64,000 nt of DNA, taken from assembly GCA_964016885.1 (NCBI GenBank), contig OZ024741.1:121830001-121894000 (forward strand). The letters run 5' to 3'. Made by a program: the position numbers and the translations under genes. The DNA is from Eledone cirrhosa (taxonomy: Eukaryota). This document shows positions 43,943-63,355 of the stretch, in pieces. The notes below the pieces were generated by a model, which made no database searches, was not told the origin of the DNA, and saw only the letters and a program-made list of their open reading frames with translations. The stretch's first letter is position 1; every line of letters starts with the position of its first letter.

Positions 43943-44859
43943 TATATATATATATATATATATATATATATACATATACACACACACACACACACACACA
44001 CACACACACACACACACACACACACATATATATATATATATATATATATATATTATATATATAAAGGGTACAATATGACAAATAAAGAGTAATGTTTTAC
44101 CATGTATATTCAACATGATATTTCAAGACTAATATCATCTTTTCAATTGGTAAACGGAAACGGCTCAAATCAAAAAGCAAACGATTGATGTGATCTTTCT
44201 TTATATATTTAATGGCATTGTATCGGCTTATATATATATATATATATATATATATATATATATATATATATATATATAAACGTTTGTATATCTATAATAA
44301 AGCCAAAACAATGCAGGCATGGACATAGAATAAAGAATGCAAATGCAAAAGATATTGTTGACAATTAGTCTTTTACCTTAGATTTATTTAAATGTCCTTA
44401 ATTTTCGAGATAATATCTCTTCTTCAGAGGGAAGTAAAGTTGTTAATCCAGTGTTCTAAATAGCTTGCCAAGTCATCCTGTCAGCATGACAGTATGTGTA
44501 TATGTGTGTGTATGTGTATATATAGGTGTGTCTCTCGTGTGTGTGTATGTGTGTATATATAGGTGTGTCTCTCGTATGCGTGGATGTCTATGTATGTCTG
44601 TGTGTTTGAGTGTTTCACGTGTGTATGTGTGCATAGGTGTGTGTTTGATGTCTCGTTTCTATGTATATGTGTGTGTTTAGGTGTGTATGTGTGTGTGTGT
44701 GTGTGTCTATAGGCGTGTTTCTTCTGTACGTATGTGTGTGTGCATGTGTGTATACGGGTGTGTCTCGAGTGTGGGTGTCACGTGTGTGTGTGGTTGGGTG
44801 GGGCGGTAGGTAGGTGTGAAGGTGCCGATGTAGGGCGGGGTGGAACGGAATGGTGGAAG

Positions 44860-45272
44860 GAGAGAGAGAGAGAGAGAGAGAGAGAGAGAGAGATAATGAG
44901 AAAGAGAGAGGGAGAGAGAGGGAGAGAGAGGGAGAGATAATGTGAAAGAGAAAAGAGAGAGAGATAATGAGAAAGAGAGAGAGAGAGATAATGAGAAAAA
45001 GAGAGAGATAATGAGAAAGAGAGAGAGAGAGAGAGAGGGAGAGATAATGAGAAAGAGAGAGAGAGAGATAATGTGAAAGAGAGAGAGAGAGAGAGGGAGA
45101 GATAATGAGAAAGAGAGAGAGATAATGAGAAAGAGGGAGAGAGAGAGAGAGAGAGAGAGAGAGAGAGAGAGAGAGAGCGAGAGAGAGATAATGAGAAAGA
45201 GAGAGAGAGAGAGATAATGAGAAAGGGAGAGAGAGAGAGAGAGAGAGAGAGAGAGAGAGAGAGAGAGAATGA
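44860..45272. repeat. Compound (GA)n-ATAAT low-complexity repeat
   Basis: Repeated gagagataatgagaaa units. Confidence 0.9.
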
Positions 45273-45379
45273 GAAAGGGCAACCGGCTGAGGTTGAAGGA
45301 ACAGAATAGCGGTCGCCCTCGGGTCCTCGATTTTCAGCCCCATGGATTTTATCTATTACATTCACGTATTATATTTCGA

Positions 45380-45437
45380 ATACCTGATGATGTCACCGGA
45401 TTCATACGGAACCCGGTCATTGAAATGATCATAGTAT
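45380..45437 (+). ncRNA. Type I hammerhead ribozyme motif
   Basis: atac-CTGATGA-tgtcaccgg..ccggtcatt-GAAA-tgatca-TA-gtat; palindromic loop III. Host element ~45285-45630. Confidence 0.75.
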
Positions 45438-45966
45438 AATAAACCTTTCAAGGATTTACACAAATCCACCCTCCTGTCATTTCATTATAATATTTAACTC
45501 CGTCATAGCACCACCAACTACAAAAACAAAGACGGTTGAACTGCCTTACGTTGAGTACTCTCTATATTATTGCATTACGATTGACCATACGGAATAGACC
45601 AGCTCTATACAGTGGTGAACCTCAAACCTGAATAAATATATATATATATATATATATATACATATATATATATATATATATATATATATATATACGTATA
45701 TATATACATATATATATATATACATATATATATATATATATATATATATATACATATATATATATATATATATATATACATATATATATATATATATATA
45801 TATATATATATATATATATATATATATATATATACATATACATATATATATATATATATATATATATATATATATATATATATATATATATATATATATG
45901 TATATATATATATATATATATATACATATATATATACATATATATATATACATATATATATATATA

Positions 45967-46731
45967 CATTATGAAGAGAGAAGAAACATTTAGATATAAT
46001 TAGTAATAAAATGTATCATACCTAAACTGCTCCTAAATTCCTCGACTACGTAGTTTCGTGGCATAAACAAAAACAATATATCATAAAGATATAGAGTCCC
46101 TGTGTCCGCGTGTATCTGTGTGTTTCTAAATATATTGTTAATAACTCCCTCTGGTCGAGCAATCTTTAAAGTGTGGGGACAGCTGGAAAGCTTCCATTAC
46201 CCATACTTCTCGCCTTCTTCACCACCTCTTCTACAGCCTCGATATAAATACCCCCTCCGCCTCCGTGGTATTTTCTTCCGGGTTATAAGAGGCTTAGCTC
46301 TGTCTCTCGACCGTTATATCGCGTGACTATCTCCCCCTCCGCCTTTTGGGATTCTTTCTCACGTCGTGTAGACGCGTTCTTGAGACTAGTAAAATGAGGT
46401 ATCCTCTTGATAAGTCGGCAGACCTCGCAGGGACTCTATATCTTTATGATATATTGTTTTTGTTTATGCCACGAACCTACGTAGTCGAGGAATTTAGGAG
46501 CAGTTTAGGTATGATACATTTTATTACTAATTATATCTAAATGTTTCTTCTCTCTTCATAATGTATTTTTAACTCTGATACTGGTTCAGTCTAGTTCAAC
46601 TGAATTGGTCTGTCCCAGTCATTCATTGAGCAACATCGGTGAAGTTGGCACCCTTAACTCACAGTTGGGTGCGGATGCATTCATGTATATATGTGTGTGT
46701 CCGCGTGTATCTGTGTGTTTCTAAATATATT
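45967..46731. mobile_element. Fold-back element family D
   Basis: Arms ~45967-46102 / 46428-46565. Decayed hammerhead at 46402-46491 (tcctc-TTGATAA..GAAC-ctacgtag-TC-gagga; the left arm retains GAAA). Direct repeat ~46101-46137 = 46696-46731. Confidence 0.85.
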
Positions 46732-46756
46732 ATATATATATATATATATATATATA

Positions 46757-47667
46757 TATTGTTATACTTGGGGAGGGGAGGGTCATATTTGTGTAATATT
46801 GCCAGAATTAATAACAGAACACACTCACTGTTTGGTTAGTTTTCGCTTTTCGCTTCTGTATCTTTTATATCGGTTAATTTAATTTATTCGGTCCTCAATG
46901 TTGCCATTGACTGACCAACGGTCAAAAATACAGATACAATATAGACACAAACATATATATATAGTCTATCAAAGTTCTTTCGTTGCACATCTGCAACATC
47001 GTCAGTGGTGCTATTGTTTCCTCCCGTTGCATTGTATTTTCTCCGCCATCTTTATTTAAACTATATATATATAGAACTTAGAAGGCCAAGACTAAACAGA
47101 AAGAATGAATGGAATAACAACACCCAAACAAACAACACTGACCTAAGAGAAGTATAAATAAATAAATAAATAAATAAATACATACACAAGCACAATAACA
47201 ACAAACACATATAAACACACACTAGTAAAGATGGAATACATTAACCGATACACAGTCACCCAATCACGAACACACATCAAACAAAACACTATACACACAC
47301 GCAAATGCATGCGCAAAGAAGACAAAATAAAATAAACAAACAAACAAATAAATAAATATATAGACAGACTAAATAAAAATGGCGTAGACATACAATGTAA
47401 CGGGAGGAAACAATAACACCACTGACGATGTTACAGATGTGAAACGAAAGAACTTTGATAGACTGTATATATGTGTTTGTGTCTATATCGTATCTGTATT
47501 ATTTTTGACCGTCGGTCAGTCAATGGCAACATTGAGGACCGAATAAATTAGATTACCGATATAAAAGACACAGAAGCGAAACGCGAAAACCAACCAAACA
47601 GTGAGTGTGTTCTGTTATTAATTCTGGAAATATTACACAAATATGACCCTCCCCAAGTATAACAATA
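46757..47667. mobile_element. Fold-back element, family A-related, with a hammerhead-like motif in both arms
   Basis: ~310-bp arms 46757-47070 / 47360-47667 with the family A terminus; CTGACGA-t-gttgca..tgcaac-GAAA (46967-47010 minus; 47417-47460 plus). Confidence 0.85.
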
Positions 47668-61379: not shown

Positions 61380-61957
61380 GGCAAATGATGGTCCGCTTTA
61401 ATCAGATAAAATACAATACAGATAAAATACAATACACCCTGCGCATGTACGCCGAACAGCGGTTGTGCTAATTTCGCGGTGACCCCTTTTGTTGCACCTT
61501 TGTTGCTGTGTAAACGCAGTGCAAGCAGTGCCACCCAGTGTTTGTGCTAATTGCACTATGACCTCCTGCTGCTGCAGCTGCGATGCCACGCTGATTTCGT
61601 CATCTCAATATCCCTACTTAAACGTACATCCCTACTTAGTTTTCACACAATTGACTACGTCGCTCCTTCAGACTGACGTGTGTTCCCCATCCGTGACATA
61701 ATTCGTGAACAGACTTACGACATACAACGCCCCACAACACTTACTTATCCTTTCTCATACAGGATTTCTGCAATCAGCCCACTGACACTGCTACTACTGG
61801 ATTCGGCCTGCTGGTGTTGTATGTTTCCAGTAGATGAACAATTTTGCCCTGAGAATAAGGAATTCAAAAAGTACACAGCTACATTCCTCAATCTTTGCAT
61901 ATGCGTGTTGCTATTTTTCCGTTTCCTACCCCGTGCAACGCCGGGTCCTACTGTTAG
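61380..61957 (+). mobile_element. Probable non-autonomous Helitron 3' part
   Basis: Ends cccgtgcaacgccgggtcctactgttagt, like the 33185 Helitron terminus; left boundary uncertain. Confidence 0.5.
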
Positions 61958-62079
61958 TATATATATATATATATATATATATATATATATATATATATAT
62001 ATATATATATATATATATATATATATATATATATATATATATATATATATATATATATATATATATATATATATATATA

Positions 62080-62601
62080 AAATGATTTACATATAGATAA
62101 AGTCATAGATATATATGTGGCAACCGGTCACGTTGTGGCTCAATGAAGAATTAATAAATTAAATAATCAGAGCAATATATCATAAATCATGTCCTTAGAA
62201 TTATTAGATAAAATATTACAATTTCCTCTCCCAATTAGCATAATTAACCATATAAAAAATCAATTAGACCAGGCTATAAGAATAAAGGCTCCTATGAAGA
62301 AATATTTGATAAATAACCGAAAGCGGCCTCTTCGCGGTGACCCCAATAGAGTATTTATCCAACATTTCAACAGCATGTAGAAACTGACTAAATATACCGT
62401 CAACCATACTCAATTAAGTGTAAATTTAAACTTAGAAGAAACGTGTACATACCGTAATTACATCTCTACCATGGTTTCGTCCGTATTTTTAGGAGCCTTT
62501 ATTCTTATAGCCTGGTCTAATTGATTTTTATATGGTTAATTATGGTAATTGGGAGAAGAAATGGTATATATTTTATCTAATAATTCTAAGGACATGATTT
62601 A
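62080..62601. mobile_element. Fold-back element family I
   Basis: Arms 62183-62293 / 62490-62601; ~100-nt tail 62080-62182; minus-strand hammerhead 3' half GAAA-ccatgg-TA at ~62467-62478; (TA)n flanks. Confidence 0.8.
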
Positions 62602-62676
62602 TTATATATATATATATATATATATATTATAAAATAACAGGAGGCTGGACTGGTGTAAATCCTTGAAAGGTTTATT

Positions 62677-62733
62677 ATACTATGATCATTTCAATGACCG
62701 GGTTCAGTATGAATCCGGTGACATCATCAGGTA
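62677..62733 (-). ncRNA. Hammerhead ribozyme motif, second copy of the 45380 family
   Basis: tac-CTGATGA-tgtcaccgg..ccggtcatt-GAAA-tgatca-TA-gta. The host element 62650-62880 ends in a 25-bp hairpin at 62818-62872. Confidence 0.75.
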
Positions 62734-63308
62734 ATTCAAAATATAACAAAGGCATATAACAGATAAAATCCATGGGGCTGAAAATCAGAGACAAGAGGAC
62801 GACCGACTATTTAGCAGCTTCTACTTCTGTCGGCCGCCCTCAAGTTGTGAGGGCGGCCGACAGAGGTAGAAGACGGGTACTTTTCTAGTATATATACATA
62901 TATACATGTACACACAAACTCACTCACACGCAGGTACACACACACACACACAGACACACACACATATATATATATATACATACATATATATATATATATA
63001 TATATATATATATATTTATATATATATATATGTATGTATATATATATGTATATATATATATGTATATATATATATATATATATATATATATATATATATA
63101 TATATATATATATATATATATATATATATATATATATATATATATAAATATATTTCGTTGACAAATATATCAATATGCCCAGACATATAGATATATTGCC
63201 CTTGGTATGACAGTGTGGTTTTAGCTCAATATAGGATAACTAGTATACTACAGAGCCGTTATAGTTATAGGAATAACCAAAGAGTGCTTAGAGATACATT
63301 TTTTTATT

Positions 63309-63355
63309 AGCTAACAGTGTTTCATCCATACACCATGCCAGGAATCCTCAGAGCC
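63309..63355 (-). ncRNA. Hammerhead ribozyme motif
   Basis: ggct-CTGAGGA-t-tcc..gga-t-GAAA-cactg-TT-agct. Confidence 0.6.

Follow-up and report, generated by a model that had tools for sequence, protein, structure and literature searches.

Type I hammerhead motifs in the genome of Eledone cirrhosa often carry a mismatch in place of the G10.1-C11.1 pair at the base of stem II, and this mismatch is a family state that is fixed even in very young families. The motifs were encountered in a stretch of 64,000 nucleotides (the window, positions 121,830,001-121,894,000 of contig OZ024741.1) belonging to a 3.0-Gb assembly (GCA_964016885.1) in which TA microsatellites are abundant. Twelve sites are concerned, each classified by its sequence features as a type I hammerhead motif lying at the 3' end of a Penelope-like element (PLE). 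In the interpretation that we favour, with a probability of roughly 60%, such motifs reside in the terminal repeats of PLEs belonging mostly to the Hydra clade, bear, at the base of stem II, a family-fixed U.U, A.G, A.A or C.A and are likely self-cleaving, probably slowly and mostly as dimers. The observations behind it are the motifs themselves, their fixation within families, the open reading frames (ORFs) linked to families C, D, E, F and G, and two identical hammerheads lying on the same strand around the ORF of one element, L315.

An earlier sequence-only reading of the window had listed twelve coordinates with mismatches or extra bases, and hammerhead-like motifs are indeed present at all of them with the bases as given. 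Three stems, of which stem I is open and made of three to six pairs and stem III is short or palindromic, surround the core C3 U4 G5 A6 N7 G8 A9 / G12 A13 A14 / A15.1-U16.1 / H17. A core-intact descriptor is passed by 10 of the 12 sites, those of families C and E with a U4C core. The two others, at 47422 (core present, stems weak) and 51667 (G8 gone), fail every descriptor and were recognized by eye and by family alignment as decayed copies. A type I descriptor ignoring the 10.1/11.1 pair returned eight window motifs (44396, 48551, 49754, 50196, 53049, 58118, 60593 and 63309), against a mean of 0.33 (maximum 2) in 40 local dinucleotide shuffles; the family A copies at 45380 and 62677 were caught by later descriptor versions only. 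A match at 51608 turned out to be a spurious pairing with the GAAA of family I and was left out of the folding count. An Rfam scan of the window produced 144 matches at E<=1, none to a hammerhead family, with only microsatellite-driven miRNA matches. The 10.1-11.1 position is mismatched at nine of the twelve sites, and G10.1-C11.1 is found only in families H, I and J.

Mismatch states within families and across the genome

Whether the mismatch belongs to each family consensus had been proposed as a check, and it does in six families: U.U in A, B, F and G, A.G in C and A.A in E. The states of families A and C were read from genome patterns with N at both 10.1 and 11.1, a DNA similarity search having returned no matches, their own copies included. 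Family A is represented by a short element at 45276..45496 (+), with a hammerhead at 45380-45437 (U10.1 45391, U11.1 45421, A17 45433) and a palindromic stem III, and by a second copy at 62621..62840 (-), with a hammerhead at 62677-62733 (U10.1 62723, U11.1 62693, A17 62681); its 70 genome matches comprise 68 U.U and 2 A.U. Family C is present as the 3' end of a putative Hydra-clade PLE at 50153..50925 (-), whose hammerhead at 50196-50242 combines the U4C core with A10.1 50231 and G11.1 50212 (A17 50200). A 35-mer of this motif has 1,951 genome matches, and the first 100 listed include 99 A.G and one C-G.

For families B, D, E, F and G the states come from best-match loci, which favour the nearest subfamily. 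Family B consists of a non-coding element of 1.22 kb at 48659..49878 (+), its 5' end fixed, carrying a hammerhead at 49754-49827 (U10.1 49766, U11.1 49810, C17 49822), and of an inverted 3' piece at 48407..48658 (-) with a hammerhead at 48551-48624 (U10.1 48612, U11.1 48568, C17 48556). All 48 of its best-match loci are U.U, as are 43 of 47 copies picked through the element's 5' end, where the motif formed no part of the query; the remainder are three C.U, possibly offset reads, and one A.U. With 40 of 820 candidates scored, 45 matches were listed, and 41 of them, including the window's own two, show 100% identity over 101 nt. In contigs X1-X3, from one public sample, no variant is listed at 49766, 49810 or the core, and positions 49768 and 49809 vary with pairing kept. 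Over 49560-49875 the same contigs show loose ends after 49765 that correspond to a sister subfamily of B in which stem II begins with G, a natural control for U.U.

The remaining families of this group are all of the Hydra clade, as judged from their linked ORFs. Family E (53049..53154, +; A10.1 53059, A11.1 53139, C17 53151), with its U4C core and a stem II region of 81 nt, is A.A in 30/30 loci. U.U is found at 16/16 loci of family F (60593..60666, -; U10.1 60655, U11.1 60618, A17 60597) and at 30/30 of family G (63309..63355, -; U10.1 63344, U11.1 63324, U17 63313). Family F has a stable stem III of six pairs and is for this reason predicted to be competent as a monomer. Family D (58118..58187, -; A10.1 58174, G11.1 58137, A17 58124) is the exception: its A.G, listed among the recurring mismatches, is private to the window copy, since the 25 best-match loci divide into 11 C.A, 11 A.A, 2 U-A and a single A.G, which is the window copy itself. 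A description of family D as an extra base followed by a C-G pair was dropped, the family having A before GAAA.

The three sites with an extra base had been grouped with the mismatches. The extra base is there, as family alignment confirms for H, I and J, but it is followed by a normal G10.1-C11.1, and these sites form a separate, published class. They are the family J hammerhead at 44396..44430 (-), with an extra A at 44420 and its U16.1-A17 site at 44399, and two decayed copies, family H at 47422..47460 (+), with an extra U at 47429, and family I at 51667..51712 (+), with an extra G.

A relaxed search of the genome, suggested by the sequence-only reading, was run on 140 stretches of 10 kb chosen by position (1.4 Mb, mostly from the largest contigs). 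The stricter descriptor found 127 motifs against 1 after shuffling; a looser one, which also admits a U3-A8 core, found 157 against 6, 10 and 6 in three shuffles. The yield is about 90 motifs per Mb, which very roughly amounts to some 270,000 in the genome. Among the 157 motifs, copy-level counts that include microsatellite-derived single hits, the pair is G-C in 44, A-U in 27, U.U in 24, C.A in 20, U-A in 10, A.G in 8, G.U in 7 and A.A in 6, with an extra base in 8 and three singletons; 59 of 157 are mismatched. Extra-base copies were thinned by the looser filter (16 in the stricter survey, 8 in the looser), so that this class is undercounted. Core variants with U3-A8 make up 28 of the 157, and U4C with C3 another 6. 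Stem III is a perfect palindrome in 83 of the 139 stems III of at most 10 nt.

Counts by family retain only clusters with at least two distinct copies (31 of 70), and one bulge family was set aside. The resulting 30 families, seven of which entered the set through this window, are G-C in 10, U.U in 7, A-U in 4, C.A in 4, A.G in 2 and A.A, U-A and G.U in one each; with the seven removed, the 23 others are G-C in 10, A-U in 4, C.A in 3, U.U in 3 and U-A, A.G and G.U in one each. Standard pairing occurs at 10.1-11.1 in 16/30 families and at the next pair in 29/30 (Fisher p=1.7e-4), or in 16/23 and 23/23 without the window families (p=0.009). C-G is found at 10.1-11.1 in 0/30 families, compared with 7/30 at the next pair (p=0.011), and in 0/23 compared with 5/23 without the window families (p=0.049); all these p-values are indicative only. 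The products reached from G-C in one step (A.C, U.C, C.C, G.A, G.G) are seen in 0/30 families. Inversion of G10.1-C11.1 to C-G is reported to abolish activity (Tuschl and Eckstein 1993).

The surroundings of the mismatch differ between families. A good helix had been described as resuming directly after it; this holds for families C, E and G, whereas the next pair is C.C in D, a single G-C precedes A.A and C.C in B, G.U, U-A and C.C follow in A, and stem II of F is weak (-1.7 kcal/mol). Families C and G also share one scaffold, and A and B the same stem II base, so that the motifs cannot all be called unrelated, as had been claimed. From A9 to G12, stem II has a median length of 48 nt in mismatch copies and 30 nt in the others.

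Elements carrying the motifs

One carrier is L315 (G000:C1:62775600-62780200), an apparently intact, full-length copy of family C in which identical A.G hammerheads lie 4,189 nt apart on the same strand, with an open frame of 832 codons between them. The frame encodes RWR (R for the K of RWK), DKT rather than DKG, YRDD, a CxCX5C linker, a GIY-YIG-like motif and CxxC/CxH. The direct terminal repeats are identical over the 412 nt compared, and the 4.19-kb unit exceeds the published 'generally <3 kb'. On these sequence features L315 is assigned to the Hydra clade, the published definition of which it matches (PMC8557442). Several pairs of same-strand family C matches about 4.2 kb apart, together with the 1,951 exact 35-mers, suggest a recent burst.

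Assignment to the Hydra clade was based on ORF motifs and on tblastn to motif-bearing ORFs, and on this basis five of the seven mismatch families of the window (C, D, E, F and G) are assigned a Hydra-clade ORF. Two family G ORFs, L273 and L284, possess the CxCX5C linker plus, at the C terminus, a GIY-YIG endonuclease with CxxC and CxH, the Pfam GIY-YIG match being weak for L273 (E 0.043). The end of a Hydra-type ORF lies upstream of the motif by about 830-840 nt in family E (two loci), 1,930-2,000 nt in family G (three loci), 1,170 nt in family D (one locus) and about 1.6 kb in family F (one locus). Other Hydra-linked families of the genome carry C.A, U.U, A.G, G-C or A-U; one of them, L119, has U3-A8 and U.U. 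The window also contains, at 13436-14711 (-), a broken remnant of a Hydra-type reverse transcriptase (RT)-endonuclease, the 2.2 kb downstream of which yielded no hammerhead.

Families H and I are located about 200-330 nt behind a different, non-Hydra PLE endonuclease ORF (about 205-330 nt for I), and the ORF link of family J consists of one ambiguous locus. The idea of a lineage-typical hammerhead variant is accordingly to be narrowed: the mismatch does recur, but it follows Hydra-clade PLEs, while the non-Hydra PLEs of the same genome keep the extra base and G-C. By its sequence associations the trait tracks the element clade rather than the host. The non-coding unit of family B is arranged in inverted and tandem fashion, as is typical of PLEs; Hydra hits beside two B copies proved to be neighbouring insertions and not an ORF of its own. 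The copies of family A have upstream sequence in common over about 100 nt only. The terminus of family B, of family C and of the second A copy lies at a TA or CT/TA array (49877-49942, 50071-50157 and 62603-62631), in keeping with the (TA)n insertion of Hydra-clade PLEs; this comparison is uncontrolled, and such arrays are common here.

Further features of the window concern hammerheads or PLEs. A hammerhead absent from the sequence-only reading lies at 46403-46490 (+), with U3-A8 core covariation and G10.1-C11.1; GAAC stands here in place of GAAA, the family (cluster 16) being intact, and a partial copy in inverted orientation is present near 46040-46102. Long inverted repeats at 11702-11900, 43115-43442, 52972-53213, 53466-53654 and 56546-56885 fit inverted ends of PLE insertions. 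A short decayed remnant at 54236-54255 resembles the stem III region of family B, and a hammerhead-core-like stretch in the vicinity of 59433-59470 fails all descriptors. Elsewhere, GC-rich open frames at 58558-59265 resemble the terminal part of a non-LTR retroelement, and a dispersed repeat at 60051-60184 and 3250-3368, with a faint tRNA match (E 0.99), is likely a tRNA-derived SINE.

Relation to published hammerheads

Among the helical pairs of hammerheads, G10.1-C11.1 has been described as second in conservation to A15.1-U16.1 alone, and a natural U10.1.U11.1 variant has been reported, U.U being the best tolerated mispair and U4C being tolerated in vivo (Perreault 2011, PMC3088659). Position and mismatch are the same as here; in that work, however, U.U was a rare surprise and not fixed in families of a retrotransposon clade, and its available text mentions no purine mismatches. 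From the available part of a deep-mutagenesis study (PMC9901934), no usable values for the 10.1-11.1 pair were obtained.

Closer parallels are found among Hydra-clade elements. In File S2 of Craig 2021 (PMC8557442), as we read it, 14 of 25 Hydra-clade families, from three hosts and 11 of them from one, show U.U, and one shows U.C; the U.U hosts are a cnidarian, an echinoderm and a crustacean, the Nematostella and Saccoglossus families are G-C, and the Chara PLE-X1 row of the table is C.A. As in E. cirrhosa, these hammerheads are of type I, near the 3' end of the element, with an A-C...G-U palindromic stem III and no bulge. Unlike here, they are labelled 'canonical', the mismatch appears without comment in the available material, the table has no A.G or A.A rows and stem II is short.

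Cervera 2014 (PMC4209133) gave an extra base after A9 as the PLE consensus and called G10.1-C11.1 highly conserved. The likeness lies in the terminal repeats of PLEs, the dimer-type palindromic stem III, the U3-A8 variant and the extra base, which matches families H, I and J; the difference is that G-C is present in only 10 of 30 families in this genome. The Hydra and D. willistoni rows of their Fig. S3 apparently read U.U, to judge by the layout of the PDF text. Their descriptor allows both an extra N10 and an extra N11. Applied literally (stem III GAAANNUH, loop II of 3-10 nt), it retrieves 0/157 sampled motifs and 0/9 window hits. Standard descriptors thus do miss these motifs, as had been predicted, although in part for a reason other than the mismatch, namely the limits on stem III and loop II: with both relaxed, 102/157 are retrieved, a number falling to 62 when extra bases are forbidden. 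PLE hammerheads with a palindromic stem III act slowly and as dimers (PMC4209133, PMC6765202), and dimer cleavage of small PLE hammerheads with a diminished stem III was reported by Lunse, Weinberg and Breaker (RNA Biol 14:1499, cited in PMC6765202).

The U.U and extra-base parts of these results are therefore already published. The literature covered, which leaves out most subscription papers, the alignment of Lunse et al. and preprint supplements, contained no fixed A.G or A.A families, no description of the mismatch as a Hydra-clade trait and no report of a 10.1-11.1 pair taking eight states yet avoiding C-G. The breadth of states, the Hydra-clade link and the young A.G family are the additions made here.

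Competing explanations and implications

Under the favoured interpretation of slow, mostly dimeric self-cleavage, a read-through transcript would carry both terminal hammerheads, whose palindromic stems III could pair into a double hammerhead; cleavage after H17 would then yield unit-length RNA for reverse transcription. Under the sheared A9.G12 the mismatch would stack in non-canonical pairing, held up by the longer helix that follows, and 10.1-11.1 might in consequence drift among tolerated states while the core and the neighbouring pairs stay constrained. One scaffold is instructive in this respect. Its 10 natural copies display seven states (G-C, G.U, U-A, U.U, A.A, A.G and C.U); their core is preserved, stem I and C3-G8 show compensatory changes, and the three pairs after 10.1-11.1 are paired in 30/30 cases.

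Several points weigh against this interpretation. The 10 copies were selected by a pattern fixing UCC/GGR, so that pairing beside the mismatch is built in, and their covariation is modestly above that of shuffles (19-36 of 500 reach it). The gap in C-G is by itself not significant against the marginals (p=0.75), and the families are related, which means that the Fisher tests overstate independence. Of the eight genuine window motifs that were folded, D alone has the hammerhead as its minimum-energy monomer fold; in the seven others, constraining the monomer to the hammerhead costs 1-7 kcal/mol. An alternative register of family B, with a U-A pair and two extra 3' bases, is 0.9 kcal/mol below the U.U register, and one of family A is within 0.7 kcal/mol of it. 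No linked ORF was found for A or B, the Hydra links of D and of F are one locus each, and Hydra-clade families with G-C and A-U also exist, so the mismatch is permitted rather than required. Finally, the activity of PLE hammerheads in vitro is weak, that of dimers included (PMC4209133, PMC6765202).

This weakness in vitro, and the fact that other functions were left possible by the authors (PMC4209133), lend some credit to an alternative that we regard as a minority possibility: the motifs would owe their retention to a function other than catalysis, for instance that of a folded 3' signal for the RT/endonuclease, and negligible cleavage would free the 10.1-11.1 pair. Naiad PLEs spread without canonical hammerheads (PMC8557442), the hammerhead is rarely the lowest-energy monomer fold, and family C, in which U4C and A.G are combined, is nevertheless represented by about 2,000 identical 35-mers. 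Against such a role, families of distinct sequence all retain the catalytic-core bases, the C3-G8/U3-A8 covariation and H17; the descriptors themselves required these features, but shuffling left a single motif where 127 had been found. It is rather unlikely that there is no true mismatch and that two independent bulges (extra N10 and N11), or a slipped register closing stem II by a standard pair, account for the pattern. Both extras are named in the Cervera descriptor (PMC4209133) and the alternative registers of A and B are competitive; yet a displaced G10.1-C11.1 predicts G-C as the next pair, which is seen in only 6/30 families, C, E and G are without a competitive register, and the two bases are not independent, A being the sole partner of C and likewise of G11.1 (permutation p<1/20000, to which the standard pairs contribute in part).

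A host-lineage effect, through cellular conditions or a host chaperone, that relaxes the pair in all hammerheads of an animal group appears less probable still. Mismatches are common and varied in this genome, and the published U.U families come largely from one host (11/14) while those of Nematostella and Saccoglossus are G-C (PMC8557442); however, such an effect is at odds with the extra base and G-C kept by non-Hydra PLE families of the same genome and with the U.U that Hydra-clade elements show in a cnidarian, an echinoderm and a crustacean (PMC8557442). That dead copies have decayed at random from an ancestor with G-C, a possibility which the sequence-only reading had discounted, is the least probable explanation. 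It is true of single sites, namely the G of 58118, the loss of G8 in 51667, the weak stems of 47422 and the shortened stem I of 62677. At the family level decay is ruled out by fixation in A, B, C, E, F and G, very young families included, and by the A.G present in both repeats of the open-frame element L315; the near-complete identity of the listed B matches and the lack of any mismatch family one step from G-C agree with this.

G10.1 contributes to a metal site, and a run of three sheared purine pairs is stable. More speculatively, and with a good deal less confidence than we place in slow self-cleavage itself, a Hydra-clade subclass of hammerheads may have given up G10.1-C11.1, with A.G, A.A or C.A extending the sheared A9.G12 stack and the ribozyme working without G10.1; the choice of pair would tune the speed of RNA cutting, and one genome would hold some 10^5 variants.

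The fixation of A.G, A.A and C.A in young, spreading families suggests that the pair is far more dispensable than assumed. Descriptors should admit N.N at 10.1/11.1, long stems II and stems III of 8-10 nt. The young and apparently intact family C, with its about 2,000 identical A.G motifs, and the seven-state scaffold offer a ready series for measuring the contribution of the pair, and with such a natural series it becomes testable whether a PLE can move only if its hammerheads cleave.

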